Source: a virus
Taxonomy: Duplodnaviria > Caudoviricetes
IMG/VR virus record: IMGVR_UViG_3300038520_000727
Coordinates: 1 to 38,998 of that record
Length of the DNA stretch: 38,998 nucleotides
Strand: one strand, 5' to 3'
Part shown: piece after piece, positions 1,580 to 19,353 of the stretch
Position numbering within the stretch: position 1 is the first letter of the stretch
How the letters are laid out: the number at the start of each line of letters is the position of its first letter
Position numbers and translations under genes: made by a program
Notes under the pieces: model-generated
Told to the model about the DNA's origin: nothing
What the model saw: the letters and a program-made list of their open reading frames with translations, nothing else
Databases searched by the model: none

Positions 1580-1821
1580 AATTAATAATCAGTTTTTTAC
1601 TAGGAGTTTGGTTTTCTTGGGGCTGGATAGAAAAGTATAACGGCGAGACGTTTGATTTATGGACTGAAGCTTACACAGTTGGTAAAGACGACGGTTATAG
1701 GTTGGGTCGTTCAGAAGCTTCAATACACTATGACCATACATTTCAAGAAAAAGAAGCGATGTGTTTATTTCTTTACGCAGACAAAGGGACAGTTTTTGGA
1801 ACAAAAAGGGTAGAAAATTGA
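1576..1821 (+). CDS. small protein with N-terminal hydrophobic/signal segment
   Basis: N-terminus MKLIISFLLGVWFSWGW; AGGAG RBS; ATGA overlap with the upstream gene. Confidence 0.65.
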   Translation: MKLIISFLLGVWFSWGWIEKYNGETFDLWTEAYTVGKDDGYRLGRSEASIHYDHTFQEKEAMCLFLYADKGTVFGTKRVEN

Positions 1822-2369
1822 TGGACAACAAAGCTCTGTGTCTGCCTAATAAAAAGTATAAAATTATATACGCTGACCCGCCTTGGACTTATAGAGATAA
1901 AGCTTCTTCTGGTAAAAGAGGTTCTTATTACAAGTATGAACTACAAGACCATAATTGGATTTGCAATCTATCTGTCAGAGACATTGCTGACGACAACTGT
2001 GTTTTATTCCTGTGGGTGACTATGCCCCAATTACCGAAAGTTTTTGAAGTTATATACGCATGGAATTTTAAATACAAAACATGTGCTTTTACTTGGGTAA
2101 AGAAAAATAAAATCAAAAACAGTTGGTTTATGGGTATGGGTAATTGGACAAGATCTAACTCTGAATTATGTTTATTAGCGACAAAGGGTAAGCCAAAAAG
2201 AATCGACGCAAGTGTTTTAAGTGTGGTTGAAACTCCAATAGAAAAGCATAGTAAAAAGCCTGATGTGATAAAAGACCATATTGTTAAACTATGTGGCGAT
2301 CTACCTAGAATCGAGTTGTTTGCTAGACAAAAGACAAAAGGATGGGATTCATGGGGAAATGAGGTTTGA
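1821..2369 (+). CDS. MT-A70 family N6-adenine DNA methyltransferase
   Basis: IIYADPPW catalytic motif, plus 'LFLWVT', 'MGMGNWTRSNSELCL', 'HSKKP' and 'RIELFAR...GWDSWGNE'. Start placed at the TGATG overlap (1821) rather than 1761. Confidence 0.9.
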   Translation: MDNKALCLPNKKYKIIYADPPWTYRDKASSGKRGSYYKYELQDHNWICNLSVRDIADDNCVLFLWVTMPQLPKVFEVIYAWNFKYKTCAFTWVKKNKIKNSWFMGMGNWTRSNSELCLLATKGKPKRIDASVLSVVETPIEKHSKKPDVIKDHIVKLCGDLPRIELFARQKTKGWDSWGNEV

Positions 2370-2398
2370 ATTAATCCAAACAATACGAGGAAATAATT

Positions 2399-2545
2399 AT
2401 GTTAACAATAGAACTTTTAAAAGAGAAAGGATTTAAGGTCACTGAAATTAAAAAACAATTGACGGAATATCAAAAATGCAAACTACCACTCATTCAAGAA
2501 AAAGGAAAGATTTATTTGTGCCAACGCAAAAGGGAGAAAGTATGA
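2399..2545 (+). CDS. 48-aa hypothetical protein (not in ORF track)
   Basis: MLTIELLKEKGFKVTEIKKQLTEYQKCKLPLIQEKGKIYLCQRKREKV; GAGG RBS; its stop overlaps the ATG at 2542 (ATGA). Confidence 0.6.
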   Translation: MLTIELLKEKGFKVTEIKKQLTEYQKCKLPLIQEKGKIYLCQRKREKV

Positions 2546-3357
2546 CAGAGTTTACAATCCATGATTCTAAAAAACCAAGTTTAAACATCGGAGATGTTTC
2601 AAAACCTGACTGTGTTTTGATCGCTACTCCCATGTACGGAGGAATGTGTACAGGCCATTTTACTTTAGGAATTATAAATACAATTAATCGATTTAGACAG
2701 TTAGGTATAGAGTGTCATCTTGCTACTTTAATGAACGAATCTTTAATAACCAGAGCCAGAAATGAGTTAGCAAGAATGTTTTTAGATGATGAAAAATTTA
2801 CACATTTAATGTTTATTGATGCTGATATTTATTTTGAGTATGATGCGGTAGAAAAATTATTTAATCACGACGAAGATATTATATGTGCCTTATATCCTAA
2901 AAAAGAAATAAACTGGGAAAGGGTAAGAAAAGCTGTTGAGAGGAATAGAAAAGACTTAAACTATTACGCTTCAAATTTTGCATTTAACTTGCCTTTGGGA
3001 ACTGATGATATTAAGTTAAATAATAAAGGTTTATTGGAAGTTCGCCATGCAGGCACAGGGTTTATGATGATTAAGAGAAAAGTTTTTGAAAAACTATCTA
3101 GTCACGTTCCTGAATACCGATCTTCTACTTTACAAGATCCGTCTGGTAAATATATTAAACCTATAGCAAAACAGTTTTTTGACACTAGCATAGACAGCAC
3201 AGGGGCTTTGTTATCAGAAGATTATCATTTCTGCGAACTTTGGTCCAATCATGGAGGTAAAGTTTTTGTTGATCTTAATATACATTTAAAGCATATTGGC
3301 ACTCATATATTTGAAGCAGACACTTCGGAAATGTTTAAAAATGGCAAAAACATATAG
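2542..3357 (+). CDS. GT-A fold glycosyltransferase-like protein
   Basis: 'LIATPMYGG', 'ESLITRARN', the DxD motif in 'THLMFIDADI', 'GTGFMMIKR' and 'LSEDYHFC'. Start at 2542 behind GGAG. Confidence 0.8.
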   Translation: MTEFTIHDSKKPSLNIGDVSKPDCVLIATPMYGGMCTGHFTLGIINTINRFRQLGIECHLATLMNESLITRARNELARMFLDDEKFTHLMFIDADIYFEYDAVEKLFNHDEDIICALYPKKEINWERVRKAVERNRKDLNYYASNFAFNLPLGTDDIKLNNKGLLEVRHAGTGFMMIKRKVFEKLSSHVPEYRSSTLQDPSGKYIKPIAKQFFDTSIDSTGALLSEDYHFCELWSNHGGKVFVDLNIHLKHIGTHIFEADTSEMFKNGKNI

Positions 3358-3925
3358 AAGAGTTGTTCTTGATGATGATCACTGGGACAGGGCTTCAAAA
3401 AGAGTGGAGGAGTCAAAAATTTTTAGAAACTCTCATAGAAAAATAGAGGCAAATCAAGTTGGTTATTTGGGAGAAATAGTCTTTGAAGATTTCTTAAAAA
3501 AACACGATATAAGTTTTATAGATGATAGAAGTAAGACAACACATGATTATGTTATAAACGGTTTATTAACTTTGGATTTAAAAACGAAAGACAGAACAGT
3601 AAGGCCTTTACAGCATTTTGATAATTCTGTTCCTTTGTATAATCACAGTCATCAGAGACCTGATTACTATTATTTTATTTCACTGCTTAGGGATAGAAGC
3701 GATAACTCAAAAAATATTAACAGATTTACTCACGCATTTATTATGGGCGGTGTGGACATAAAAACAATTGACACAAACGGAAAACATTGGAAAAAAGACG
3801 ACATAGATCCATCAAATGGCACTAAATTTTGGACTGATTGTTTAAACATTGATATGGGAAACCTAATTGAAAACCAATATATGTTGAGTATTTTTAAAAA
3901 GGAAAAAACAGATGAAATTCTCTAA
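3341..3925 (+). CDS. putative PD-(D/E)xK restriction-endonuclease-fold protein
   Basis: Helix 'GYLGEIVF', then 'HDYVING...LDLKTK', giving E...D...DxK spacing. Confidence 0.55.
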   Translation: MAKTYRRVVLDDDHWDRASKRVEESKIFRNSHRKIEANQVGYLGEIVFEDFLKKHDISFIDDRSKTTHDYVINGLLTLDLKTKDRTVRPLQHFDNSVPLYNHSHQRPDYYYFISLLRDRSDNSKNINRFTHAFIMGGVDIKTIDTNGKHWKKDDIDPSNGTKFWTDCLNIDMGNLIENQYMLSIFKKEKTDEIL

Positions 3926-4148
3926 ACAATATGCAAAACAATTATCTAAGATGGATGACGACTTAAAAGAAGTTGCTATTGCCATGTATGAAACTCATAA
4001 AGGATTTCCATTTTATATAGTTGCTCAAAAAATAGATATGAATTCTGTTGAATTTTATGACAGGTTGGTGTTGGTTAAAAAATTATTAGGTATACCGGCA
4101 GGGCCAAAAAGACAAAGTTTTGAGCCCGGCGGACCTATTTGGAAATGA
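3912..4148 (+). CDS. hypothetical protein
   Basis: 78-aa ORF overlapping both neighbouring genes. Confidence 0.65.
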   Translation: MKFSKQYAKQLSKMDDDLKEVAIAMYETHKGFPFYIVAQKIDMNSVEFYDRLVLVKKLLGIPAGPKRQSFEPGGPIWK

Positions 4149-5119
4149 TTAAATTTGATTTGCGTATTGGAAGCTGTTTAAAAGTCTTACAAGAGTTGCC
4201 TGACAACTATTTTCACACTTGCGTCACTTCTCCTCCATATTGGGGGTTGAGAGATTATGGCACAGGTAAATGGGTTGGGGGAGACGTAAATTGTCCTCAC
4301 AAAAGAACTACTAAAATTGGTAAGACTGTAAAAACAATCACAGGTCATCAGGGTATGCACGACCAAGGTTCAGTGGTTGGAGACGCTATTTATAAATCTG
4401 TTTGTCCAAAATGCGGTGCAGTCAGAAGCGATGAACAACTGGGTCTTGAGGAAACTCCTGAATTATATATTAATAAACTAGTAAGTGTCTTCGCTAAAGT
4501 ACATCGAGTCTTGAGAAACGATGGAACTATTTGGGTAAACCTTGGCGATACCTACGGCAAGGAAAAAGGTTTAATCGGTATACCTTGGAAGTTTGCGTTT
4601 GCTATGCAGGAGTTTGGTTGGTATTTAAGACAAGATATAATCTGGCACAAACCGAACCCAATGCCTGAGTCTGTCAAAGATAGATGCACAAAATCACATG
4701 AGTATATATTTTTATTATCTAAAAAACCTCATTATTACTTTGATAGTGAAGCTATTTCTGAAGAAGCTAATTATAAAGGTGTAGATAGGGGTGGGTCTAC
4801 AAATCGATATGAACAAAATAATTTTGGGGCAGATAATCGACAATACGATAAAAGAAACAAGCGTTCTGTATGGTCTGTTTGTCCTAGTGCTTATAAGGAG
4901 GCACATTTTGCAGTGTTTCCAGAAGAACTTATAACCCCTTGTATTTTATCTGGCTCTCCTGAATACGGAAATGTTTTAGACCCTTTTGGTGGTTCAGGAA
5001 CTGTTGGTTTAGCGTGTAAACGGCACAAAAGAAACGTCACCTTGATCGAACTTAATCCAAAATATGAAAAGTTTATTAGATCAAGATACAAAGAACCAGT
5101 ACAGGATTTATTGGTGTGA
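4145..5119 (+). CDS. N4-cytosine/N6-adenine DNA methyltransferase (beta class)
   Basis: VTSPPYW catalytic motif near the N-terminus and VLDPFGGSGT SAM-binding motif near the C-terminus; also 'IIWHKPNPMPESVKDR' and 'HFAVFP'. Start at the ATGA overlap (4145). Confidence 0.92.
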   Translation: MIKFDLRIGSCLKVLQELPDNYFHTCVTSPPYWGLRDYGTGKWVGGDVNCPHKRTTKIGKTVKTITGHQGMHDQGSVVGDAIYKSVCPKCGAVRSDEQLGLEETPELYINKLVSVFAKVHRVLRNDGTIWVNLGDTYGKEKGLIGIPWKFAFAMQEFGWYLRQDIIWHKPNPMPESVKDRCTKSHEYIFLLSKKPHYYFDSEAISEEANYKGVDRGGSTNRYEQNNFGADNRQYDKRNKRSVWSVCPSAYKEAHFAVFPEELITPCILSGSPEYGNVLDPFGGSGTVGLACKRHKRNVTLIELNPKYEKFIRSRYKEPVQDLLV

Positions 5120-5409
5120 GTAGATTAAAAGATAAAAAATGGTTTAATCAATTACAAGATATAGGTTGTATAGTTTGTTATAACGAAGGTAAACCAAGAG
5201 TTCCGGCGGACATCCATCATATACTGAAAAACAGTAGGAGGGTGGACCATTTGCATACCATTCCTTTATGCTTCCATCACCATAGGGAAGGGTCTAATAA
5301 TGGTAGATGGGTGTCTCGCCATCCTTGGAAAAAAGAGTTTGAAAAAAGATACGGGGATGAGTGGGAATTGTTTAAACAGGTTAAACAGATTATCGCAGAT
5401 ATGACCTGA
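5116..5409 (+). CDS. Ref / DUF968-like HNH-type zinc nuclease
   Basis: GCIVC ... ADIHH ... TIPLCFHHHR. Confidence 0.75.
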   Translation: MSRLKDKKWFNQLQDIGCIVCYNEGKPRVPADIHHILKNSRRVDHLHTIPLCFHHHREGSNNGRWVSRHPWKKEFEKRYGDEWELFKQVKQIIADMT

Positions 5410-8400
5410 ACTGATTTATATTAGATAATAAATTCATTTCGGCAGTGCGTATAGCATTTAGAGTTTGTTTCTTTAACTCCGGAGCCATGCTTGGGCTCTC
5501 TAATATAAAGTTTCTTTCCATTCTCAAAGACTTCAAATCTTTGTCTAGCTGTCTTATGTATGGTGCTAAATCTATTAGAGGTTGTTTCTCATTCAAGTAT
5601 TCAAGTAACTCGTTAGTCTTTCCTGTTCTTTCTAAATGATTGATTGTAGCAACTGCCTTGTCTAATTCTTCTCTTAATTTAAAGAAATCTGTTTTTGGTT
5701 TTGTTCCTTCGGGACTAGCAAAAAATCTTTTTAAGACTGGCATTTGTTCAGGATTAAAAGTTGGTTTGATTGGGTCTCCTTGCCCTCTGAATATAGAATC
5801 CAACAACATCACAGCGTAACTGCCTAAAGTACCTGTATATCCTCTAACTAGATAATCTATTTGAATCGGTGATATTCCTGTGTTTTCACCTATACTTCTT
5901 GCAAATAAAGATGTACCGTTGTTTGCCTGATATCTTTCTTCTATACCTTCCTGTCCTAGTCCTACGATTCTTTCGCCTGTAAAGAATGAATGGTTTGAGG
6001 TAACTTCAATCAATGGTTTTGCAACCTGCGGTATAGGTAGGAAGTTGAATGTTGAAACTAAATTCCTTGTCATAGATTCTGCTAGGTCATCAGCCTTCTG
6101 ATGCCCCATGAAGTATGCAGATAATCTCTCAGGGATTGTTTTAAATAATATTCCTAATTCAAATGGAACTGGCAGTTTAGCTGAACCTACAATCCAGTTT
6201 AAATCTCTTTGCTCATCCTCCGCTGTCTGGTATTCTTCTTCGTCTTTTGCTAAGTAGTAGTATAAAACAGATGAAGCAATCATAAATAGTGCTCTATTTA
6301 AAAATGCTTTGTGTCTGGCCGCTTGGTTTTTGGTAGCCATCTTACCCATACCAACCCTGTAAAGAACGTCTAAACCTTGTATACGCGCGTTTAAGAATGG
6401 TATGGAGGCCGCTAGTATTCTAATAATTGGACTAGAACCTTTTCTGTTAAAGTTCATTATCTCTATTGCCTGATACACAGCGTCTGCTCTTGAACCGCCA
6501 TTCTTTAAAACTTGTTCAGCTACAGCCGCCCTTGTGGATATATCAGATAATGTTGTACCTTTTTCTAGCTGTCTCCACAGTGTTAACGGTGCTTGTCCTG
6601 CTTTATCAAGCCCTGTTAATGTACCTGCCCTTTCTCTCATTTGTCTTCTGACTTCTTCGGCTGTGTCTAGTACGTTTGCCTTGAACTCGTAACCTGTACC
6701 GACTCCTGCACTCATAAGAAGCTGTGCCTCTGGAGACATATTTGCGGCAGTTTGTGTCAATTGTTTGAGAGAACTAATTATAGGTGTGTATCCTTTTGCT
6801 CCACTGGTGAACCATGCAGAAAAAGAATCCCTGAATAAGTTTGCCATCATAAATCCGGGGTCTCTTGTTACCATCTCTCTCAACACTGTAGCTGGTTTAG
6901 ACAGGATTTGTATTCCCGGTATATGCGGAGTTGTAAACGATTGCATAGACGACAGAAGCAGAGGGTCGGCAACTCTGTAATATACATCCTTACCATCTTC
7001 TCTGATTCTGATTACATCGTTATCCCCTGCAAACTTCTTGTTAACCTTCATAGCATAAGGGACATTCATGGCAGGGTCGTTCAATCTGACTGCATAACTT
7101 ATAGTTTTTCTAGCCGCCTCGTTTTTCAATCCTGCTTCTATTGCGGCTCTTGTATTTTGTACAACATTTAAAAAGAAATCATCAAGCTTTTGCTCTCCAC
7201 CTTTTATCTTAGGCGTTAGTCTTTGTCCTGCAAGACCGGACAATAATCTTGGACCAGATGTTTCTTCACCTTCCATTTGTCTATAGAAAGGAATATAGAA
7301 AGAATCTCTCATCCATGACTCACCCATCTCTTTGGATAGGACTCCAGTATCAATGAGGTATTTAACTAACGAGCGATTAAACGTCTGATAATCTTTTCGT
7401 ACTTGTTCAAACTCTGGGAATGTCTTGGCTAGTTCATCAGCTTTCTTAATGTCTTCCGGCGTAAATAGTTTCTCGGTGTATTGAGGCTTGGGGTCTTTTG
7501 GTAGATTAGCTAAAAGAGTTTTCTTTCTTTTTGCTTCTTCAAATGTTAATGGGCCTGTACCAAACTGAGATTCTATTCTTGCTCTTTCAATTTCTATTTC
7601 TTTTCGTACCTTAGCTACCCTTGCTTTTTCTTTAGCGACTAACTCTTGTGAACGCTTGGCAGACATATAGTATTGGAAAGCTTTAAACACATATCCGTCT
7701 GGGTCATCTCTAGCCATCAAGGGCTCTAGCACTTCCATCAAACCTTTATGTATTTTCTTTCCATCTTTGTCTACGGATTCTACGAGAGTGATTCCTCCAT
7801 CCAGTACTGGCACCCCACGTTTAAACGCTTCTGAAGATACCGCAGCACCGAAATCAGAGAATACAGCAGAGGCCAAAGCGTTAACTTCACCTCTTAAAAC
7901 ATCGAATCCTTCTGGTAAGTTTTTTGCCGCAATGTTCATTAACCTTTCTATACCTTCGTACTGGTTAATAAACGCTTGTCTAAACCTTCCAAATATAGAA
8001 TCAATCCCTTCTGGACTTGTAACGCTAACAACAGTTTTTGCTAACTCTTGTTCTTTTACAGTGGAGATTGTTTTGTTGATTCTTTCGACTGTATCTTTAC
8101 CTAATCTTTCTTCTACTTCTGCTTCAAACTGATACTTAAACTGTGACTTCTCTCCTAGTAAAGGCTTCTTAGCAAGTATTAAACCACCTACCTGTATTAC
8201 TTCGTCTGCCGCAATTACAGGTTTTTGATTGTGTCTGGTGTAAAAATATGAATGTCTTCTGGGGTTATATCCTACCTGAACCCATTGTTTTTCGTCTTTT
8301 GGAGTTCCATCTTCGTTAAAATGTTCTTCCATTATTGAGTTAGCTTCAGATACATTTTGTTCCGTAGTTTGTGGCACAAAATTTCCGTTATAGGTAGCAA

Positions 8401-11400
8401 AAGGTATTTTTGTCATTTCCCCTGAGCCAATCTTAAACGCTAAATCTTCTTGTTGTTCTGTAAGAATAAATTGAACTTTGCCGTCCTTACCACCTTTTAG
8501 TTTGGTAGTTGGCATATATCCGATAACAGGACCAGCTTTTGCTGTTTCAGTTGGTTCGTGTGCTGTAATAGCAAACTTTCCTGTGTCCATAAAAAATGGA
8601 ACATCCTGTCTTATAGATACTAATTTGTTTGTTTCTATGACCTGTCTTTTTCCTTCAATAGGGTTAAATCCTGAAACTCTTTCTTGTAAATTAAGACGGT
8701 CGTAGTTTCTTAATCTTGTAGAATAATCGTCTGATAGTCTGCTATATAAATCAGCAACTTCATTTTGTAATTCTTTATTTGCTCCTATTTGTTTTAGTTT
8801 TTTGTTTAAATTATCAATTGCTCTATTAGAAGCTGTCTCAAACTCTATTGCTAAATCCTCATCTAATCTATAAAAGTCTTCTTTTGCAAATGCAATAGCT
8901 GTTTTAACAATACTGTCATCTATATTTCTTTTTGGTTTAAATTCGTTATTAAAAGATTGTAATTCTTCACGGTAAATACTTTTTGCCTGTCTTACATCAC
9001 TAGGAGTAATTCTAGCAGAGCCTTGCCTGTCGTAATCAAAGGTAATTCTACTTGGTCGTTCTTCGCTAACTATATTTTCACGAACAGATTCTGAAGACAT
9101 AACTTTTGCTCTTTGGCTATCTCTTCTAAGTTTCTGAACCATTTCTGTTTCACTTGTTGGCTCTGGAACCTCTGTATAAGGAGTTATTCTTGTCTTTTCA
9201 TTTTGGTAAATAATTTGCTCTAGCTTTTTAATAGCTTCTTTGTTTGCTGTCCTACCAACTGCGTCTAAACCTGATGCCGCACGAGCTATAATCGCATCCT
9301 GTAACTCTGGTACCTTCTCAATTGCTTCTCTTTCTTCTCTAGTCATAGGAGCACTTCTACTAAACTGATACCTTATGTCGGCATTATTCTTTGAGTATGT
9401 GCCCATGTTAGCAGAGGCAGATTTTAATTGAGTTGGTCTATATACAGCTAGATTTTTTCTGCCTGCTTCCTTTACATAGTAAGCATCAAATCCAGCATCT
9501 TTTATGCGTTTTTGTATGGAGGGATTTTCTATGGCTCTCCAGCTACCTCTTGAAACAGAATCTGTTTCAAAAACACCTATATCTGTTTCTATTCTAGAAA
9601 GTTCCCCTAGTGCATTAACATGGTCTGGATTCTCATAGTCAAATGGATTCTTTGCACTAACATACAAAGGCATAACATTCATGTTTGATGGCAGAAACTC
9701 TGCTAATGTGGAATAAAACAGTTGCTCTGCTTCTGCTTCTTCAGTTATATCTCTTATATACTCCCCTAAATTAGCCATATGAGCTTTCATTGGTTTGATA
9801 TCAGCCGGTAACCTATTTAAGAGTCTAAAATATTCTCCTATTAATCTAGATGCTTTTAACTTATTTCGTGTTTCATACTCCCCTAAATTGGCGTTGTATC
9901 TTTCCACAAATGTATTTATTGCATTTTCTATGTCTGCTTGATTTATAAATTTCTCAGCATTCTCTACCATGTAGTTTTGAGAAAATTTAGCAAAGTCCTC
10001 TGCAAACTCTGGGTCGTCAGTTACAAATACGCTTTTTGCTTGCTTAGGTTTAAACGTAGAAAAATTAGCACTCGTGCCATGGTACATTACCTTGGGCGAG
10101 CCGTCCGGGTTTACAATTTTAGAGTCGCCGAACCATTGTTTAAACGGCTCTGTTTCTACCGGGGCGAACTGAAATCTTACTCCTATTTCTGTGGGTCGTT
10201 TGAGCTTTGCTTGTTTTGATTCAACTGCTGACCTTGCAATTTCGGTAAACTCTGAGAAAACATCATCAAGTCGCTCTCGAATATCTTGTCTTGAGGGCCT
10301 GCTTTCTCGAAGCCTGCTGATAATAGTATTTCTATCTCTTTGTCCTGTATGGTCATAACTCCCTCCTCTTTTAAAATCAGGGTCATCTACATTATATGTA
10401 GATTTAAATCCAAAAAACTTTGGTCTACCAAAAACTTGGTCTTGGATAGAATTGTAAAAGTCAATCATCTTTCTAGCGAATAATATGTCGCTTCCAGCCA
10501 TTTGACCTTGTATGTCTCCAAAGTTTATCACTGTTAACTGGTTAGGTCTAGTTGCAGTAAATCCTATATCTGAACCTGTAGCCTGTTTTAATTTTTCTGC
10601 AAGTTGATTTGCTGAGTATCCCGGAGCATCATCTACATTTTCTTTTAAATCAAATACAAATCCAAGAGCATCTCTGTCTTTTATGTTAATGACAGGACGT
10701 AAGAATGGAACTGCGTCTTGTTTAAACACATATGCCATTGCGCGGGAAAAATCCGCAGCGTCTCTAGTTGCTTGGTCTTTATCTTTGTCGTTCTTGATTC
10801 TAATAATAAAATTAGGATTGATTGCTCCTTCATAAGAACCTTGTCCTATATCAATTCTCAAGTCACTCTCTATACCTAATATATCTTTAATTCTTTCTAC
10901 TGTAGGAAGTAAACTTTTATTTAATTTCCTTTTCTCTTCCGCAGTAAGATTGTAGAGTTGCTCATATAAAGGTCTGTTAAATAAAGTTCCAAATTTATTT
11001 ACTTTAAGTTTTGTTGATGGGAATATTTCTCCTGTTATAGCTTCTGTTCTGGCTAATATTTCATCAGAAGGTTCTTTAAATCTTTCATTAACGATTAAGG
11101 TTTTGTTAGTCAAAGCAGAACCATAATCAACTATGGCCTGATTCATTGCTATACGAAGTTTTTCTTTTCTGCTTTTATTTTTGTGTTGTCCTTTTTCTAT
11201 AAAGCGTTTAAATATGGTATATGTTTTTTGTCTGACCCATGTTGCCGCCTGTATTTGCCTTGGAGTCAAGCCCGTCTGTTCTGCCTGTAAATCAACTAAC
11301 CCTTCTGCTAAATCAAAATCGGCAGATGAAGGGACATCTTTACCAAACAACATTCTAGCCATATGGAGGTCTATGGTAGAGTCTTTTCCTCTTATTTTTT

Positions 11401-14400
11401 CTATTGCTTCTATAAAGTTTCTATAAAATGTGTTTGTTTTACGCCCTGCAAACGGTAACCCATATTCTAATAAGTCTTGTATTTTTGAATTAGCTTCTTC
11501 AAACCCAGATTTAATTGGCTCTCCTTTAGCCCACTGATTCCAAGCTGTTACAGCTTTTTTTGTATTCGCTTTCACCTCTGTGTTAGGAGAGGTCATAGCC
11601 ACAATTTGAAGAAACTTATCAGTTAAGTTCATATCATTGTCAAAAGCTTTTAGTATTTCTTGCGCTGAGTTTTCATACCAATCCTTCCCTTTTATGCCTT
11701 GGTTTAAAAACTTTTGCAATTTAGCTGAAGCTTTTTGAACTTGCTGTAAAGTGAACTTGGAATCGTCTTTCGATATTCTCTTGTTTACTCTCTCTACAAG
11801 CTCGTTTAAACGCTCTACAATTTGCTCATCCGTTAATACCTTTGGATTCTTATCTTTTTCTAGCTGGAAGAATGCTTGTTCTGATGCTGACTCTGGGTCT
11901 CTTACTGACTCTGCAAATTCACCTCTAACAATACCGCTGAATATCTGGTCTGAAGATGTAAATCCAATACCATTGAAAGCATTTTTTATAGCTTCAAAGA
12001 AAGACTTTAATCTTTCTACAATACTTCTAATACCGCCGAATGGTTTTTGTCCGCCTTTATCTCCTTCAAATAAAACTCTGTCATACTCGGCAAACGCTTC
12101 TGCTATAGCTTCTTCTCTTATAGCATCTGTGTTATCACCATAGGCTTTTTTATATCGCTCTATCTGACCTTTGGATAAGTATTTGTCTATCCAAACTTCA
12201 TCAGCTTTTTTTGTTAAAGCTTTCCATTGGCTATCTGTAAATGCTCCTAGCTCTTTTAAAGCATGAATAGCTTCGTGCTTCATAGTTTGCATAGGATTAG
12301 GGGCAGTCAAAGCAACGTGGATGACTCTTTGTACTTCTTTTATTTCATACATTCCTCTCACTGTCGGGTCGAAATCCTTATCATCAAGGATATTCATTAT
12401 GTTAATGCCGACTTTTTTTAAACCTATCTTGTTTAAAACTTTTTCTAGTCTTTTTCTTAACTCAGCTTTTTGTTTTTCATTGAGATTAATTGTTGTCTTA
12501 ACATCTTCCTTGGTTTGTAAATCAAGACCGGTTCTTCTGTTAATCTCTTCTCTGGACGCTCTTTCTAGTTCGCCTTCTTTGTTAAGGTTATCTAGGTCTA
12601 TGTTTTTTTGTAACTCAAGATTTTCTTGGTTTCTCAGGGCGTACTGTTCCGCCTGCTCTTTTGTCTCAAATGGTCCTTCTAGCTGACCATCAGGTCTGCG
12701 TACACCAAATCCCTGCCTTACATTTCTTCTTTTCTTGGCAGTCGAGGTTATCTTTGTACTGCGTTTTAACTTTTCTAAATCTTTAGATTTATCATCAATC
12801 TCTTTTCTAAGTCTAGCTATCTCATCTTTGACCTTCAGTTGTTGTTCACTTGCATCTGGTCTGACTTCGTCCTCTGTAAGAACGTCCTGATTGAGGAGTG
12901 AAGCTTTCTTGGACTCAATCGTTTTCTCTTTATCTTCAATTTCTTTTGCAATTCGTTTTGCTTTTCTAGCCCTTGTATCATTAACTTGTGCCTCGTATTT
13001 CTGTGCTTCTTCAAAAGTCTTAAACTTCTTACCGCCTTTAAGTTTCTTACCTTCTACAGTTACTTCAAAATCCGTCGGTGCTTCTTCTCCAATCTTTGCT
13101 CCCTCTACCCTTTGTCCCTCTGGGAAATCTACTGGCTCAATAGTTGAGCCATCGGGTAGGTCGCTAGGAACGTCACTGGAAAAGTTAAATGATGTTTTTA
13201 ATACTTCCCTTACTTGTGCTTTAGGGTCGTTTTTAGCCGCTTTTTCTGCTTGCCGTCTTGTATCAAACTGTGTTGTTTGAGTGCCTTTTTTAAGAGTTCT
13301 TACAACCTCAAATGCAGGTTTAGTTCTTTCCTGCAATTCTCCTCTTTCTCTGGCTGTTCTTAATATTGACTCAGCATCTGCATCTTTTTCTAATTTTGTA
13401 AAATCCTTAATCTCTTTTATTGCTTCTTCTTTACTGATGCTGTTTTTGTTATTCAGTCTTAGTGTATTTTTAAGGCCGTTTAAACCTTGTTCATACTGTT
13501 TTTCAGAGAATCTGGTAGCGTTTGTACTAAATACAGCTCCCGGATTATTGCCGATATTTTGTAAAGCCTCAAATATAGCAATACGTTTTACATTTGTTAG
13601 TCCTCTACCTTCTATAGGCTCCCCTCTAGCAAACACATCAGAACCTATTGTTCTTCTAACCAGACTGTTAAATACATCTCCTCCAGCGGTTACACCCATT
13701 TCATCTGCCAGATTTTCTATCTGTTCAAATGAGATCTTTCTATCTAAATCTATGTTTTTTTCTCGGAGTTTTGCCGCTATTATCTTATCTAGATCAGTGT
13801 CATATTGCTCTGGTTCTAATGACTCGTAAATATCTTCCATAGAGTAGGAATCTATAACCGGTCTACCTAACTCTCTTCTTCTTTTATTTATTTGGTTTTT
13901 TGTTTGAGTATCCAAACCATCTGCACTTACATTTCCTAAGAAGTTTTGAACAGGATTTGCCTCTTCTACATCTTGCACAAATACAGGGTCACTATACACA
14001 TCCTCTGGCTTAGGTTGATATCCCAGAGCCAGTGGTTCCTCTTCCTTTACAATTTCTTCTTCGGCTTTTTCTGCTTTTTCTGCAACCTCTGCTTTATCTC
14101 TGGCTAATTGCTGACGAACTTTATTAGCATCTGTTCTAGCTGTAGCTTTCTGAAACACCCTACCAGCACCACCAAGTGGGCCTCCAACAAGAGCGGCACC
14201 ATATAAAGCTTCTGCATATTCAGACATTGCTTCGTCGTCAAGAAGGTTTAAACCTGCTTGATTACGTTCTAACGCTTGTTGGAATACTTCTGTTGCACCT
14301 TCTATGCCAGCACCTTGAACTAAACCTTTTAATGCTTGCGGAGTAACTCTGCTTTTAGCTATTCCCTCTAGTCTTTTTAGTTCCTTTTCTGTGTTTTTAG

Positions 14401-15088
14401 CTTGAAATAATTTTTTAGCATCGCCTCCAAGCATTTCGCCAAATATTTTTCTACCAAATTTTGGCATCAATAAAGCAAACTCTGAAGCAGTACCTAAAGT
14501 TGCTGATTGTAAAGCATCGCTTTCATTTATATCTAAGGGCTGTCCTTTTTCTAATTTTTCAGCCGCCTGTCTTTCAATGTTACTTCCAAATAACTGTAAG
14601 AATATTGGAGTTGCGGCCCCAACAGTTCCTAAAATAAGAGAGCCCGCAGGGCCGCCGTAGCTACCGGCTAAGGCTCCTGTCCTCGCTCCTACTATAGAAG
14701 CTCCTATTATTGGGGCTTGTTCTTTTAACGCAGGTACTATTTGAGAACCTACTTCTCCGATAGCAGGAAATAATCCTCGTCTTTCGTATATGTCTTTTAC
14801 TTTTGAAAAATCTGCCCCGCCTGTAAACCTAGCTCCTATGTCTTGTTGTTCTAGCAATGCTCTTCTAGCTATTTCACGATTAGCAGATTCTGGGCTGGTT
14901 AAAGCTTCAATACCGGTTCCCACGGTTGCCTTAAAAGCTTCTAGCCCTTTAGTGAAAGGAGCTTCTTCTGGAGCTGGAAATTCTTGGGGAAACTGAGTTC
15001 TAAGAAGTTTTAACGCTTCGTCTTCTTTGATTCTATCGGGAACGCCTTTTGCAATAACCCCTGATGGTAATCTTATGTCGTATGGCAT
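5390..15088 (-). CDS. giant polyvalent internal-virion/ejection protein (HExxH metallopeptidase, HhH-glycosylase-like, ADP-ribosyltransferase-like and LPD38-like domains)
   Basis: 3232 aa at the end of the virion operon. Contains KHEAIH...EEAIAEAF; WY..SP..N..K..F..TIDLH..QAATW; FKQWFGDSK..YHGT..NPFD..PTQLKS; and C-terminal PVPFELG..PER..N.SFFTG..IV. Confidence 0.85.
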   Translation of the reverse strand: MPYDIRLPSGVIAKGVPDRIKEDEALKLLRTQFPQEFPAPEEAPFTKGLEAFKATVGTGIEALTSPESANREIARRALLEQQDIGARFTGGADFSKVKDIYERRGLFPAIGEVGSQIVPALKEQAPIIGASIVGARTGALAGSYGGPAGSLILGTVGAATPIFLQLFGSNIERQAAEKLEKGQPLDINESDALQSATLGTASEFALLMPKFGRKIFGEMLGGDAKKLFQAKNTEKELKRLEGIAKSRVTPQALKGLVQGAGIEGATEVFQQALERNQAGLNLLDDEAMSEYAEALYGAALVGGPLGGAGRVFQKATARTDANKVRQQLARDKAEVAEKAEKAEEEIVKEEEPLALGYQPKPEDVYSDPVFVQDVEEANPVQNFLGNVSADGLDTQTKNQINKRRRELGRPVIDSYSMEDIYESLEPEQYDTDLDKIIAAKLREKNIDLDRKISFEQIENLADEMGVTAGGDVFNSLVRRTIGSDVFARGEPIEGRGLTNVKRIAIFEALQNIGNNPGAVFSTNATRFSEKQYEQGLNGLKNTLRLNNKNSISKEEAIKEIKDFTKLEKDADAESILRTARERGELQERTKPAFEVVRTLKKGTQTTQFDTRRQAEKAAKNDPKAQVREVLKTSFNFSSDVPSDLPDGSTIEPVDFPEGQRVEGAKIGEEAPTDFEVTVEGKKLKGGKKFKTFEEAQKYEAQVNDTRARKAKRIAKEIEDKEKTIESKKASLLNQDVLTEDEVRPDASEQQLKVKDEIARLRKEIDDKSKDLEKLKRSTKITSTAKKRRNVRQGFGVRRPDGQLEGPFETKEQAEQYALRNQENLELQKNIDLDNLNKEGELERASREEINRRTGLDLQTKEDVKTTINLNEKQKAELRKRLEKVLNKIGLKKVGINIMNILDDKDFDPTVRGMYEIKEVQRVIHVALTAPNPMQTMKHEAIHALKELGAFTDSQWKALTKKADEVWIDKYLSKGQIERYKKAYGDNTDAIREEAIAEAFAEYDRVLFEGDKGGQKPFGGIRSIVERLKSFFEAIKNAFNGIGFTSSDQIFSGIVRGEFAESVRDPESASEQAFFQLEKDKNPKVLTDEQIVERLNELVERVNKRISKDDSKFTLQQVQKASAKLQKFLNQGIKGKDWYENSAQEILKAFDNDMNLTDKFLQIVAMTSPNTEVKANTKKAVTAWNQWAKGEPIKSGFEEANSKIQDLLEYGLPFAGRKTNTFYRNFIEAIEKIRGKDSTIDLHMARMLFGKDVPSSADFDLAEGLVDLQAEQTGLTPRQIQAATWVRQKTYTIFKRFIEKGQHKNKSRKEKLRIAMNQAIVDYGSALTNKTLIVNERFKEPSDEILARTEAITGEIFPSTKLKVNKFGTLFNRPLYEQLYNLTAEEKRKLNKSLLPTVERIKDILGIESDLRIDIGQGSYEGAINPNFIIRIKNDKDKDQATRDAADFSRAMAYVFKQDAVPFLRPVINIKDRDALGFVFDLKENVDDAPGYSANQLAEKLKQATGSDIGFTATRPNQLTVINFGDIQGQMAGSDILFARKMIDFYNSIQDQVFGRPKFFGFKSTYNVDDPDFKRGGSYDHTGQRDRNTIISRLRESRPSRQDIRERLDDVFSEFTEIARSAVESKQAKLKRPTEIGVRFQFAPVETEPFKQWFGDSKIVNPDGSPKVMYHGTSANFSTFKPKQAKSVFVTDDPEFAEDFAKFSQNYMVENAEKFINQADIENAINTFVERYNANLGEYETRNKLKASRLIGEYFRLLNRLPADIKPMKAHMANLGEYIRDITEEAEAEQLFYSTLAEFLPSNMNVMPLYVSAKNPFDYENPDHVNALGELSRIETDIGVFETDSVSRGSWRAIENPSIQKRIKDAGFDAYYVKEAGRKNLAVYRPTQLKSASANMGTYSKNNADIRYQFSRSAPMTREEREAIEKVPELQDAIIARAASGLDAVGRTANKEAIKKLEQIIYQNEKTRITPYTEVPEPTSETEMVQKLRRDSQRAKVMSSESVRENIVSEERPSRITFDYDRQGSARITPSDVRQAKSIYREELQSFNNEFKPKRNIDDSIVKTAIAFAKEDFYRLDEDLAIEFETASNRAIDNLNKKLKQIGANKELQNEVADLYSRLSDDYSTRLRNYDRLNLQERVSGFNPIEGKRQVIETNKLVSIRQDVPFFMDTGKFAITAHEPTETAKAGPVIGYMPTTKLKGGKDGKVQFILTEQQEDLAFKIGSGEMTKIPFATYNGNFVPQTTEQNVSEANSIMEEHFNEDGTPKDEKQWVQVGYNPRRHSYFYTRHNQKPVIAADEVIQVGGLILAKKPLLGEKSQFKYQFEAEVEERLGKDTVERINKTISTVKEQELAKTVVSVTSPEGIDSIFGRFRQAFINQYEGIERLMNIAAKNLPEGFDVLRGEVNALASAVFSDFGAAVSSEAFKRGVPVLDGGITLVESVDKDGKKIHKGLMEVLEPLMARDDPDGYVFKAFQYYMSAKRSQELVAKEKARVAKVRKEIEIERARIESQFGTGPLTFEEAKRKKTLLANLPKDPKPQYTEKLFTPEDIKKADELAKTFPEFEQVRKDYQTFNRSLVKYLIDTGVLSKEMGESWMRDSFYIPFYRQMEGEETSGPRLLSGLAGQRLTPKIKGGEQKLDDFFLNVVQNTRAAIEAGLKNEAARKTISYAVRLNDPAMNVPYAMKVNKKFAGDNDVIRIREDGKDVYYRVADPLLLSSMQSFTTPHIPGIQILSKPATVLREMVTRDPGFMMANLFRDSFSAWFTSGAKGYTPIISSLKQLTQTAANMSPEAQLLMSAGVGTGYEFKANVLDTAEEVRRQMRERAGTLTGLDKAGQAPLTLWRQLEKGTTLSDISTRAAVAEQVLKNGGSRADAVYQAIEIMNFNRKGSSPIIRILAASIPFLNARIQGLDVLYRVGMGKMATKNQAARHKAFLNRALFMIASSVLYYYLAKDEEEYQTAEDEQRDLNWIVGSAKLPVPFELGILFKTIPERLSAYFMGHQKADDLAESMTRNLVSTFNFLPIPQVAKPLIEVTSNHSFFTGERIVGLGQEGIEERYQANNGTSLFARSIGENTGISPIQIDYLVRGYTGTLGSYAVMLLDSIFRGQGDPIKPTFNPEQMPVLKRFFASPEGTKPKTDFFKLREELDKAVATINHLERTGKTNELLEYLNEKQPLIDLAPYIRQLDKDLKSLRMERNFILESPSMAPELKKQTLNAIRTAEMNLLSNINQFRSYLR

Positions 15089-15089
15089 A

Positions 15090-16907
15090 TTATCGTGGTG
15101 GAGCTAATAGACTTTCAAATGCACCAGAAACATCTATCTCTTTTGGAGGTTGTCCTAAACTAGCTCCAAACTTTCCCTGATTTAAGAGGAATTGTTCTTG
15201 TGTAAGTTGTTCTCTAATTCTCCTTTCTTCTGCTATATACCTTGGGTCACTTGGAGGTAAATTCATTCCCATGGGATTCCTATCACTTGGAGGAGCGGCA
15301 TAACCTGCCATGTGTTTTCTTACATCATTTTCTATTCTTGTTATTTGGCCTGCGGTCAACTCTCCAGTTCTACTTGCTTGTGGGTTTCTGTAGTAGTATG
15401 CTTTTGCAAAATCAAGGCCTATGCCGGATTCAGCCTGTGCAATACTGAGAGCTGTGTTTATGTTTTCAGCAAACAAAGCTTTTTCAGTTCCAAGTTTTTG
15501 TAAACCCATTGTCTGGAATGTTTCTCCTCTTTGTAAGCTTCTTAATCCCGCTTCTTCAGCCCCTCTGGCATAATTATTTTCAGACTCAGCAAATGCTATC
15601 CTCGATTGTAATAAATCTTTTTTAGCATCTACAATGTCTTTTCTTCCTTCTTTGTAAGCCTTTTGGAATCCCTCTAATCCTTTTCCTAACCATTGTAAAT
15701 TTTGACCACCGGGAGACTGTAATATAGCGGCTCCTGCTTGTATCAAAGCATCATTTAGATTATCAAATTTTAATTTTTCAATTCTTTTTTCTTCTTTTTG
15801 AATTTCATCTTTTAAAAATCTTAAAGGATTTTTTATTTCTTTTTTATATTTATTTACACCTTCTTGGTACAACTCATCCGGAGCTTTACCTTTGGAAAGA
15901 AATTCTGATATATCTTTGTTGATTCTATTTATATTATCTAAGTCAGTTTTAAAACTGCTTTTTAAATTTTCTAATTTTAGTTTGGAAGCCTGCCCTATTT
16001 TGGTCATCTTAGGGTTATTTTCATCCGGCGCATTTCCTACTCCTACTTCTTTTTTTTCCGCATTTTTTTGTAAATTAAAAGTTGGGAATCCTTTTTGTTC
16101 TGGAGTTAGACCTTGTCTTATTAGAGCATCTTGTATAATTTTTTGATTTCTTGGGTCACTTGCAACTCTTTCTCTCATTGTTTTTATTTCTGGGTTATCT
16201 AAGTAATCTTTACTCAAACGACCTTCGGGTCCGGAAGGAATTATGTTACCAGAGCTATCTCTAATGATGTTTCTCCCAACTCTTATACCTCCTTCTTCCT
16301 CTCCTTGTATTCTCTTTAATCTTTCTGCCAGACTTTCTTGCGCCTCTTCTATTTCTTTAGGGTCAGTAGAGAAGTATTCAGTGATTGTATCTTTAGCCGC
16401 TCCCGGTGCCTCTAAAAGACTTCTTCCGCTTACTCCAAGAAAATCCATAATCTTCTCTCCTGTCGGTCCTATAAATTCTTGAAACCCAGACTTAACAGGA
16501 GGTTGGAACTCTTCTAATTCTTCTTGTGTGTCTTCAATTGTTACAGAACCGCCATTATCAAAAGCAACCAACCCTCCATCAGCCATTTGCTGTGGTTGCG
16601 GTTGTGGTCTTGGAGGCATAGGCATTCTTTGTGGTTGTCTAGGCATTTGTTGAGGGGGGCCAGCCATTGCCACATCTTGTGCGGCAAGACTTTGCGCAGC
16701 TTGTGGAATAGCGTTTAAACCCATTACATCCTCTGCCACTGTTGTACCGGGCTCTTGCTTCGCAACATTGTCACGCATTCTTTTTCTTCTTGTTAACTCA
16801 GAAACTACAAGATAAGCCGGATATGCTCCGGTAGGATTTGTAACTTCGTTCTGTAAGAATGAGTCAGGTACGTCTTTAAGTTGCTCTGATAATTGTATTA
16901 AGTTCAT
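15090..16907 (-). CDS. putative internal virion (ejection) protein
   Basis: 605 aa, largely helical; P/Q-rich linker followed by MADGG/FDNGG; amphipathic 'ALIQAGAAIL...LGKGLEGF' segment; lies just upstream of the giant gene. Confidence 0.6.
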   Translation of the reverse strand: MNLIQLSEQLKDVPDSFLQNEVTNPTGAYPAYLVVSELTRRKRMRDNVAKQEPGTTVAEDVMGLNAIPQAAQSLAAQDVAMAGPPQQMPRQPQRMPMPPRPQPQPQQMADGGLVAFDNGGSVTIEDTQEELEEFQPPVKSGFQEFIGPTGEKIMDFLGVSGRSLLEAPGAAKDTITEYFSTDPKEIEEAQESLAERLKRIQGEEEGGIRVGRNIIRDSSGNIIPSGPEGRLSKDYLDNPEIKTMRERVASDPRNQKIIQDALIRQGLTPEQKGFPTFNLQKNAEKKEVGVGNAPDENNPKMTKIGQASKLKLENLKSSFKTDLDNINRINKDISEFLSKGKAPDELYQEGVNKYKKEIKNPLRFLKDEIQKEEKRIEKLKFDNLNDALIQAGAAILQSPGGQNLQWLGKGLEGFQKAYKEGRKDIVDAKKDLLQSRIAFAESENNYARGAEEAGLRSLQRGETFQTMGLQKLGTEKALFAENINTALSIAQAESGIGLDFAKAYYYRNPQASRTGELTAGQITRIENDVRKHMAGYAAPPSDRNPMGMNLPPSDPRYIAEERRIREQLTQEQFLLNQGKFGASLGQPPKEIDVSGAFESLLAPPR

Positions 16908-17977
16908 TAACCTTGCCCCGATAATCCTCTATAAAGTCCGTAAGCTGGTAACCCAGTTCCGACAATTTGCTGTAAAGCTGTTTGAGGAGCCTGATATAAA
17001 GCTTCTCCTCCTTGGAGAGTTCCTGTTCCTCTGAGAATGTCTGACATAAACTGCTCTCTTTTATACGGATCTTTTTGTTTTTGTTGAAACTGTTGTTGTT
17101 CGTAATCAAGCCTTCTTTGCTCTTCGATTTGTTTTTCTCTAGCAATTTGTGCTTGCATTTTAAGTTGAGCTAATTCAGCGGCGGCCTCGGACTTAGCTAT
17201 ATCTCCTGCTGAAACGCCAGCCATCCTTAATTGTTCCAGTCCCTTAAGACCAAGACCTGCCCCAAATTGTCTAGAAAGCTCTGTTGCTTTTTGAGCTTCT
17301 AAAAACCTTAATTGATTTGCCAAGTTTGCCTCTTGCATTTGTTTGGCTCTTAGCTCCTCTACAGACATTTGAGCTTTTCTATCTCTTTCAAACTGTTGTT
17401 GGGCTTGTTCAAATGCTTTTTGTCTTCCAGTAGCTTCTATGTCTCCTAATTGCTGGCCTAAATTTTTTTCTCTTTGTGCTTGAAGAAGAGCTTGTCTTGC
17501 TCCGCCATATGTACCTCTTCTTGCCGAACCTAGATTTGCTCCTAATTGAGTTTGTTGAGCGTCTTCTATTGCTTTTCTTTTTTGAACATCAAGAACTCTT
17601 TGTAAGTAAGGAGTTTCATAAGCCATGGACTCACCTACGCTAAATTGCCTAGCTGGCCCTACATAAGGACTTCTAACTCTTTCCATTCTGAACTGGTAAG
17701 GATCGTATTGAGAGGCTTGTATAGCCCTGTTACCAGCCTCCTGTACCATTTGTTGAGCTCCTCTAAATCCTCCCGGAAGCTGTAAATTAGCCGCTCTTTG
17801 GCGAACTTCCATTTGTTCTACTGTAGGGTCAGCAAATACCTGACCTTGATATTGAGGAGTTGGAGTTTCAACTAAAGCCTCTGTTCTACCAAGCATCCTC
17901 TCTACATACGGTTTTGCGTATTCAGGTATTGATACTTGACTTACTTGACTCGGCTGTTTACCGCCGCCTTTACCCAT
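16907..17977 (-). CDS. putative DNA-pilot/ejection protein
   Basis: N-terminus MGKGGG, Q/A-rich coiled coil, 'GTYGGARQ' and a glycine-rich hydrophobic C-terminus. Confidence 0.6.
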   Translation of the reverse strand: MGKGGGKQPSQVSQVSIPEYAKPYVERMLGRTEALVETPTPQYQGQVFADPTVEQMEVRQRAANLQLPGGFRGAQQMVQEAGNRAIQASQYDPYQFRMERVRSPYVGPARQFSVGESMAYETPYLQRVLDVQKRKAIEDAQQTQLGANLGSARRGTYGGARQALLQAQREKNLGQQLGDIEATGRQKAFEQAQQQFERDRKAQMSVEELRAKQMQEANLANQLRFLEAQKATELSRQFGAGLGLKGLEQLRMAGVSAGDIAKSEAAAELAQLKMQAQIAREKQIEEQRRLDYEQQQFQQKQKDPYKREQFMSDILRGTGTLQGGEALYQAPQTALQQIVGTGLPAYGLYRGLSGQG

Positions 17978-17986
17978 AATAAATCC

Positions 17987-18403
17987 TTATTCTAATGGTA
18001 ATTCAAACGTATCCCATAGAAATTCATGCCCGTGACTCTTTAGAGCCTTAGCCCAACCTTTACGTCCAGTAGCTTCTAAGCCGTCACATTTCATGTCGAT
18101 TGCAAAATTCTTTAGCATAACAATCATCTCATCTTTCCATGTATCTAACTCTTTGCCTCCACAAAAAGCCATACATAAAAACTTTTTCTTAGGATAAACT
18201 AAAATATGTGTAACAACGGCACCTTTTATTTCGTTTTCGTCAAATGCGATCCAAAGGTGATGATCGTATTTGTATAACGCAAGATATAAATCTTCTATTT
18301 CATATCTTCCGTTTGTATACTCAAGGGCTTTTTTAAGATATCCCTCAACATCTTTCCAACAACTATTTATATACTCTGTCGGAACATGTGAAACTTGTAT
18401 CAT
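17987..18403 (-). CDS. GNAT-fold acyltransferase-like virion morphogenesis protein
   Basis: 'LWIAF...GAVVT...YP...LCMAFCGG...FA...CDGLEATGRKGWAKAL'. Its position among ejection genes matches T7 gp13-like genes. Confidence 0.6.
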   Translation of the reverse strand: MIQVSHVPTEYINSCWKDVEGYLKKALEYTNGRYEIEDLYLALYKYDHHLWIAFDENEIKGAVVTHILVYPKKKFLCMAFCGGKELDTWKDEMIVMLKNFAIDMKCDGLEATGRKGWAKALKSHGHEFLWDTFELPLE

Positions 18404-19353
18404 GCAGGCATTAATGCGGCAGGATTAACCTCCGGTGCTTGCATCTTTCTACCTGTCCTTTCTGTTCTAACTCTATCCATCATTCCGTGTAATCTTTTAG
18501 CTCCAGCATCGGACGAACCGTTGCCTAAACCTGATACAACATCAGCGGGTACTACAAACTCCCCATCTGACAATCTTGCTTCCATTGTACCATCAATATT
18601 AGCTCTTATCGAGTCACTCATACCATCTCCTTGACCTGATAAAAACCTTCCGCCTTGTTGCATTCTAACCTGACTTTCTAGACCGGGTATTACTCCACCT
18701 GATCTTGCCGGATAAGGTTCTAAAGCAGTAAACGCTGTAGTCTCAGGGTCATAAGAATATGGTCTAATCATAGATGGACTTCCCATGTCGTAATCCATTT
18801 CTGTTTCCAGAGCTGGAGTTAATGCTGTAAGACCAGACATTGTTAAACTTCCAGCACCTCCAGCGGCTTGTAGTGCCGCAGGGTCTCTTCCTATAGCTCC
18901 TAATCCTTCTCCCACAGAAGCTAATCTTTCAGCAGATGTACCTAAATTGCCATACTGTGTAGCCGCTTGTTTAGTAAGGTCTGCTCCTTGTAAAGCAGAG
19001 CCTTGCATGGTAGTCGTAATAGGTTTTGCCTGTATTCCTGTTCCAATATTAGGTATAGGAGCTCCTCCTGCCGCTTGTCCGGCGGCTTGATATGAATCAG
19101 CCATTGTTGCTGGCGCACCTGTAGTCACTGGCTTTAGTCCAGCTTGAGCGGCAGATGAGGCCTGTCCTGCTTGACCTAAACTCTGTGATAAATTAGCGCC
19201 TCCAAAAGCTCCAAGTCCGGCTGTCAAGCCTTTACCTATATCTTTTGTGGCTATTGCTGTTCCAACCCCTGTAGCAAGACCAGCCTGAAGGGCTGTTAAT
19301 CCTAATCCTGTCTGTAGTCCTGCTCCTAATAATGCTGGTAAAAAAGGTAACAT
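18400..19353 (-). CDS. putative internal virion protein with G/A-rich membrane-like N-terminus
   Basis: Hydrophobic G/A-rich N-half. The C-terminal 'QGG..GQGDGMSDSIRA..ARLSDGEFVVPAD' motif resembles one seen in tape-measure/ejection proteins. Confidence 0.6.
   Translation of the reverse strand: MLPFLPALLGAGLQTGLGLTALQAGLATGVGTAIATKDIGKGLTAGLGAFGGANLSQSLGQAGQASSAAQAGLKPVTTGAPATMADSYQAAGQAAGGAPIPNIGTGIQAKPITTTMQGSALQGADLTKQAATQYGNLGTSAERLASVGEGLGAIGRDPAALQAAGGAGSLTMSGLTALTPALETEMDYDMGSPSMIRPYSYDPETTAFTALEPYPARSGGVIPGLESQVRMQQGGRFLSGQGDGMSDSIRANIDGTMEARLSDGEFVVPADVVSGLGNGSSDAGAKRLHGMMDRVRTERTGRKMQAPEVNPAALMPA

Follow-up and report, generated by a model that had tools for sequence, protein, structure and literature searches.

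Autoproteolytic release of polyvalent domains by a metallopeptidase (MPTase) was predicted by Iyer, Burroughs, Anand, de Souza and Aravind in 2017 (PMC5512222), who drew an analogy to RNA-virus polyproteins. According to the same source, P1 DdrB is cut before packaging, and N4 vRNAP is packaged whole. The passages of it covered here give no cleavage site or junction motif, and the terms 'linker', 'boundar' and 'recognition site' have 0 occurrences in its main text; a literature search covering titles and abstract starts of mainly non-subscription papers found no junction motif described in polyvalent proteins. Here, we analyze a 38,998-base virus record (IMGVR_UViG_3300038520_000727, about 63% complete; the window in the following), in which a gene for a giant protein of 3232 amino acids (aa) carries a short motif four times, and we provide a concrete candidate cleavage site, its lineage variants and a model of the bound peptide.

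Two described phage proteins are among those closest to the one studied here. Gp25 of the E. coli phage PTXU04 (MK373772.1, PTXU04_00025) has a homologous C-terminal part (24.7% identity over 92%), preceded by an HExxH domain and a single RKSL motif between the two; unlike the window protein, it carries no cargo behind the peptidase. Its knock-down impairs infection, and processing is not mentioned in the text of that report available to us (10.1101/2023.09.18.558157). The second, phi24B gp47, is a 2811-aa LPD38 protein that was detected in virions by proteomics and proposed to be an ejection protein (10.64898/2026.04.10.717836); it was compared by description only. Its authors assign the peptidase to peptidoglycan and, in the part of the preprint covered here, report no processing.

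The window gene shares several hallmarks of the proteins in PMC5512222. Its 3232-aa open reading frame (ORF) combines several unrelated domains, including an LPD and effector-type domains (LPD38, ART-PolyVal and DUF7178, all above curated Pfam cut-offs), with an embedded zincin-like MPTase of the HExxH type, and is encoded among virion morphogenesis genes. Its sequence places it among the phage-type polyvalent proteins described by Iyer et al. We propose that the four motifs are the joints between its modules and, probably, the recognition sites of its own zinc peptidase, so that the conserved ends would carry the chain in and out of the head and the cuts would free the cargo. This proposal builds on four direct results: the motif sits at the joints, it is conserved as a peptide, the catalytic residues are intact, and modules are shuffled across the family. 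It also builds on a model that predicts the motif to bind in the active site.

Four motifs delimit the cargo modules

A preliminary description of this locus had listed a HEAIH peptidase peptide followed by four similar short motifs, which it took as the edges of self-contained effector modules. All five peptides lie where it placed them, on the minus strand within one 3232-aa ORF, with EEAIAEAF starting at aa 992, and [FY]Q[FL] is found exactly four times in the protein. The narrower pattern [RK][FY]QF, chosen after the fact, occurs three times versus 0.09 expected. In window coordinates (all features of the giant gene are on the minus strand), junction motif 1 (FFQL, aa 1073-1076, 11861..11872) comes after a short linker behind the peptidase and is the least typical of the four. 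Motif 2 (RFQF, aa 1638-1641, 10166..10177) is recognized from the sequence and from relatives, motif 3 (RYQF, aa 1906-1909, 9362..9373) belongs to the peptide that was modeled in the active site, and motif 4 (KYQF, aa 2318-2321, 8126..8137) stands directly ahead of the conserved C-terminal part.

Relatives confirmed that these sites are module borders. The ART-PolyVal module fits end to end between sites 2 and 3. The sister proteins P0007 and P0012 align to aa 1-1641, that is through RFQF, and again from aa 2318 (KYQF in the window, RYSF in them), with a short spacer where the window has modules 2 and 3. Another relative, P0013, has an extra piece ahead of its first Q-type motif. The borders of the modules were thereby upheld, but their self-containment only in part, as module 1 consists of two parts and module 3 holds an optional insert of ~148 aa that lacks end motifs. 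Site 4 occupies the position at which relatives carry K/R-Y/F-S-L.

A tag at module borders across the family

To place the motif in its family, 131 loci and 330 proteins of relatives were collected. Both the peptidase and the C-terminal part were present in 92 ORFs; 76 were non-redundant, and 63 of these had a mappable start of the C-terminal part, the other 13 being dropped. A [KR]-[YFL]-S-L-like tag lies at most 30 residues before this start in 62 of the 63 proteins, whatever module precedes it; the single miss reads LFSLR, and the window reads KYQF there. Sequence comparison thus presents the four window sites as the form taken in this lineage by the family-wide [KR]-[YFL]-S-L tag, which follows the HExxH peptidase, separates the cargo modules and precedes the conserved C terminus.

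The tag is strongly confined to the cargo. A profile trained on the C-terminal anchor alone found, with the training sites excluded, 100 further cargo sites at score 10, compared with 2.9 sites in shuffled cargo; at the same score, N-terminal parts yielded 4 and C-terminal parts 0. The refined profile, training sites included, gave 3.69 sites per 1000 cargo residues versus 0.11-0.22 in the other parts. At least 9 aa always separate the peptidase from the first tag, and in 54 of 63 proteins this tag comes within 70 aa, the linker being 9-55 residues long.

The preliminary description had asked whether breakpoints of module gain and loss in homologs fall on the motif. When the tags were masked, 60% of the interior BLAST ends (3517 of 5832, non-independent observations) lay within 25 aa of a tag, versus 13% (778) expected, and the clustering exceeded expectation in all 58 of 58 proteins. 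Breakpoints were present at 135 of 147 interior tags versus 35% of random positions, so that module borders do cluster at tags. Cutting 116 proteins at their tags resulted in 402 segments, which fall into 25 shared module families, most of them unnamed, arranged in 98 architectures.

The peptidase and its predicted complex with a junction peptide

The zincin-like peptidase domain (aa 866-1058, 11915..12493) is recognized by invariant residues, model topology and weak zincin fold matches. It holds the HEAIH zinc-binding motif (aa 938-942, 12263..12277) and an EEAIAE helix (aa 992-997, 12098..12115) that likely provides the third zinc ligand. All 67 aligned rows share H938, E939, H942, E992 and E993, and the domain thus shows the gluzincin combination of HExxH with a downstream invariant Glu; EEAIA[DE] resembles the third-ligand helix of thermolysin. 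A search for naturally dead peptidases found none among the full-length peptidase domains. The domain is absent in 14 of 90 proteins, which appear to be N-truncated fragments. The peptidase family is large, with 1720 cluster representatives matching its profile at E ≤ 1e-10.

An AlphaFold2 model from 67 rows (predicted local distance difference test, pLDDT, 71.5) placed three strands ahead of the HExxH helix. Its linker and motif 1 had a pLDDT below 50, and docking in cis was not seen in it. An earlier model from 27 rows was all-helical, without a zincin match, and was discarded once the 67-row model gave the expected topology. The leading Foldseek rows were mostly zincin-fold proteins at weak E values (0.02-0.5), and VIA matched lethal factor and PPEP-2, again weakly (Z 5.7, root-mean-square deviation (rmsd) 4.3, 131 residues aligned; Z 5.4, rmsd 3.6, 123 aligned). 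Pro-Pro endopeptidases and lethal-factor-type zincins are therefore the best, if weak, fold matches; their substrates are other proteins, and the match is no sign of a common specificity. Neither Pfam (no family at cut-off) nor PDB sequence searches named the peptidase, and Atlas returned unnamed clusters plus a minority LPD23 label.

We then modeled the peptidase (aa 866-1059) with zinc and a 32-aa peptide spanning junction 3 (aa 1892-1923), following the suggestion of the preliminary description to predict the structure of the peptidase with motif peptides. The junction 3 motif was placed in the active site with a complex score of 0.61, versus 0.00 for the best of three controls, all of them unrelated proteins. 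As a rough guide for the present case, 116 of 157 solved complexes attain this mark, as do 2 of 215 mismatched pairs. Separate runs agreed in at least 84% of contacts, with a partner pLDDT of at least 52. Out of the 32 residues, the confidently placed part is only ADIRYQFSR, which in the model contacts H938, E939, H942, E992, E993, Y979 and the edge strand 908-917. R1906 touches H942, Y1907 touches E993 and Y979, and Q1908 touches T935, H938, E939 and E997.

In zincins, the S1' pocket is found next to the first His and the residue three positions ahead of it. Applied to the model contacts, this usual geometry suggests that Gln is P1' and that the predicted cut falls at Y↓Q, or [FY]↓Q in general. 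The bacterial N-end rule destroys proteins with an N-terminal Leu or Phe; a cut at the predicted position would create new N termini of Ser or Gln instead.

The same model bears on an alternative in which the motif binds the peptidase uncut and the enzyme instead acts on a host target. The motif would then be a docking strand or a self-inhibiting one, which folds the giant chain for packaging or sets the pace of its exit. The model itself speaks for binding only, the phi24B preprint proposes peptidoglycan as the target of its giant protein's metallopeptidase (10.64898/2026.04.10.717836), and some MPTase-bearing proteins travel uncut (PMC5512222, main text). However, each chain has one peptidase and up to seven tags, one per joint, and the contacts straddle the zinc ligands as those of a substrate would. 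We regard this alternative as unlikely.

There is also a small chance that the motif is a cutting or handling signal for another reader, such as a prohead protease, a host protease or the ejection channel. The peptide-level constraint described below and the linker context of the tags (19% hydrophobic residues upstream versus 29% in cargo) would fit any reader, and the ORFs of the window were scanned in part, in a record that is itself incomplete. Against this, the tag keeps to the part of the chain that follows the built-in peptidase, and the model places it in the active site of that very domain.

Three further observations concern the peptidase domain. Among relatives that are otherwise 97-100% identical, a loop before the edge strand (window 12330-12420, minus strand) forms a hypervariable patch; together with similar patches in the ART module, it is possibly a target-recognition surface. 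The 4460-aa protein P0104 has four copies of this peptidase amid many helix-turn-helix repeats. In several copies from Bryobacterales assemblies (L125, L127 and L129), the peptidase-coding stretch is split over two ORFs near 10270, by either a frameshift or a sequencing error.

Constraint acts on the peptide

The preliminary description had offered a recombination joint for cassette exchange as the other role of the motif. Within the family, the tag draws on every one of the six Ser and six Leu codons (Ser is TCN in 51 of 252 cases and AGY in the rest), and tag codon identity is 40% within genes and 37% between genes, versus 30% by codon usage. Exact DNA identity of at least 12 nucleotides (nt) between sites of one gene was found in 12 of 515 pairs. 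As synonymous codons vary freely, the constraint acts on the peptide, not on the DNA. The preliminary description had also pointed to AACTGA as common to three of the window sites. It is indeed shared, but it is the reverse complement of the [FY]-Q-F codons and not a special DNA site, occurring 14 times on the plus strand of the window, 6 of them within the giant gene.

A DNA joint with the peptide as a by-product is not without support. Breakpoints cluster at tags, and codon 2318 is where a divergent tract in L003 stops. Ser is encoded by AGC at 64% of tag sites versus 22% in the background, an excess in keeping with a shared ancestral joint. Gln is CAG at each of the four window sites, in a gene with 107 CAA and 51 CAG codons overall, which agrees with copying from joint to joint or with a local slip of an ancestral AGC codon, and sites 3 and 4 share 10 nt. 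Beside the codon data, however, close relatives vary inside modules, and the loss of the ART module in L105 relative to L083 used a crossover at a 3-nt match outside both tags, both of which were kept. Remnants of deleted ART modules persist between two tags in L105 (aa 1162-1180, 12 residues) and in L076 (aa 1003-1045, about 35 residues). The free codon variation, the rarity of long identical runs and the L105 crossover thus leave a sequence-specific site unsupported, and the DNA-conserved crossover site of integron- or shufflon-type systems is absent. A Pfam scan of 20 of the 76 listed ORFs in this incomplete record showed no recombinase gene. Modules are exchanged as motif-bounded units by recombination near the joints, with no fixed DNA site; as the sole role of the motif, the DNA joint is largely refuted and very improbable.

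Equally improbable is a relic copied along with the modules, or a small structural cap, that has no reader at all: the ART module does always end in a conserved tail that includes the tag, but the tag borders some twenty unrelated module families, is kept as a single copy in the cargo-less proteins L092 and L112 and is present once in PTXU04.

Lineage variants of the tag

Across 386 anchor-defined tags from 133 proteins, the third residue is Ser in 342, Ala in 18, Gln in 15, Asn in 5, Arg in 4, Lys in 1 and Leu in 1. Non-Ser residues agree within proteins, with 27 concordant pairs versus 1.6 by permutation (maximum of 8 in 5000; kinship uncorrected). The clade of the window shows stages of such a change: in P0243, four joints read SF and one reads QF; in P0007, two carry Q and one SF; and in P0242, three carry QF. 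A second clade uses QI or QF, and others use AL, SK or KL. At the end of module 3, the window reads KSQFKYQ and its relative L047 KSQFKYS. Phage MinM2, which has a distant peptidase, shows ESAR at five joints as read by eye; its giant protein (L133:4737-13148) has two HExxH domains, with the repeated ESAR at apparent module joints.

Residue 997 of the peptidase contacts the motif Gln in the complex model and is Asp in most Ser-type peptidases and Glu in the window. Bulky tag residues occur at 0 of 292 anchor tags with D997 and at 19 of 87 with E997. A bolder generalization, which we hold only tentatively, is that thousands of podophage ejection proteins may be self-processing polyproteins with a portable four-residue code, in which tag-flanked domains would ride into the host and be freed by the built-in zincin, and the code would co-evolve with the S1' pocket (Ser pairing with Asp997, and Gln, Arg or Lys pairing with Glu997).

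Proposed mechanism

Peptide-level conservation, the position at module borders, the recurring variants and the complex model support the earlier idea that the motif is the cleavage site of the built-in peptidase; the cut itself is what we infer. The conserved ends of the protein would carry the chain into the head and out again. At each tag, the peptidase would cut between the aromatic residue and Gln, in the probable register [KR]-[YF]↓[SQ]-[LF], predicting pieces of aa 1-1074, 1075-1639, 1640-1907, 1908-2319 and 2320-3232. Because the cargo lies between two conserved ends, cutting would follow packaging, and the three cargo modules would be freed from the conserved chassis most likely on injection. 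Modules would be gained and lost by ordinary recombination near the joints, while selection would keep a usable site on each side and retune the sites of acquired modules to the lineage variant. If this reading is right, the protein resembles RNA-virus polyproteins by analogy, having likewise one embedded protease and one repeated site code. Unlike those, it has a zinc peptidase and would be a virion-carried DNA-phage protein with exchangeable cargo, and there is no homology.

Several points weigh against self-processing. Cleavage is predicted only, for every family member, and N4 vRNAP, ArdC and TraC1 are packaged or transferred uncut according to the main text of PMC5512222. In the window protein, four occurrences of [FY]Q[FL] compare with 1.6 expected, and as 8% of 10,000 shuffles reach four (p = 0.08), the single sequence alone does not prove the pattern. 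The four window sites score 0-6.6 on the Ser-Leu profile (threshold 8), so their family membership rests on position. Three cultured HExxH relatives (Vibrio 1.232.O, vB_ValP_FGH and CF418P1) have no tag scoring at least 8. The absence of a tag before the C-terminal core in four LPD38 relatives without HExxH (1229-1679 aa) counts in favor of self-processing, but these proteins also lack recognizable cargo and are a weak control. The variation of the closest relatives inside modules complicates the simple picture of exchange at the joints, and the BLAST ends carry less weight for being non-independent. As for the complex, the controls were not a scrambled motif or another piece of the same protein, and the pass may reflect likeness to known structures, because peptide-bound zincins such as PPEP-1 are solved; binding alone would fit a substrate or an inhibitor. 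The pairing of peptidase and tag is also imperfect, as near-sister peptidases of L072 and P0239 go with YQF and YKL, so that this position tolerates some change. The link between E997 and bulky residues weakened when the scan was widened, with Gln at 7 of 388 sites with D997 and at 12 of 81 with E997, and a tree-aware test of E997 versus bulky motif residues found only 2 independent pairs (p = 1); the association suggested by the sequences is a lead.

The tag provides exact bonds, fragment sizes and mutants, making the self-processing prediction of 2017 directly testable, with PTXU04 as an E. coli phage model that has a single tag. It also splits these proteins into natural modules, and the 25 shared families among 116 proteins are candidate early-infection effectors. 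If self-processing is true, the tag would read out the borders of anti-host modules from sequence and offer a plug-in route for protein delivery into bacteria.

Cargo modules

Cargo module 1 (aa 1077-1637, 10178..11860) comprises DUF7178 (aa 1130-1285) and a second, unnamed domain, and belongs to a cluster of 34 segments; Atlas returned DUF7178 only. The DUF7178 stretch (window 11234-11701, minus strand) keeps WY, SxN, K-x-x-x-FY, TIDxHM and RQxQAAxW. Its IDxHM pattern suggests a possible likeness to helix-hairpin-helix DNA glycosylases. Module 2 (aa 1642-1905, 9374..10165) is ART-PolyVal, ADP-ribosyltransferase-like (Pfam PF18760, E 8e-19; 69.2 bits versus a cut-off of 31.2). Its hypervariable inner patches lie at window 9500-9900 (minus strand), again among relatives that are otherwise 97-100% identical. 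Module 3 (aa 1910-2317, 8138..9361) is an unnamed mobile domain; its optional insert of ~148 aa is helical-looking, spans about 8630-9073 (minus strand), has no tag at its ends and is absent in L001, L002, P0004 and P0006, and a stretch related to it is placed at the module start in P0243. PDB sequence searches returned no match for modules 1a, 1b and 3. The earlier suggestion that the modules are anti-host enzymes thus has a supporting family match for the ART-like module only, and none for the other two.

Genomic setting of the giant gene

The gene (5390..15088) is the last of a minus-strand virion gene block, in which a major capsid gene is followed by SU10-type adaptors, a tail chaperone and virion structural genes and then by the 3232-aa ORF. 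Its N-terminal region (aa 1-865, 12494..15088) is weakly conserved and has a weak match to phrog_6958, a virion structural PHROG (E 5e-6). The conserved C-terminal part (aa 2322-3232, 5390..8125) contains LPD38 at aa 2950-3119 (Pfam PF18857, E 8e-37). Directly upstream of the giant gene, window 15090-19353 (minus strand) encodes three unnamed Gln/Ala/Gly-rich ORFs of 605, 356 and 317 aa, which are likely further internal virion proteins. Directly downstream and converging on it, window 1761-5119 (plus strand) carries genes for MT-A70 and N6/N4 methyltransferases, along with a weak glycosyltransferase-like match.

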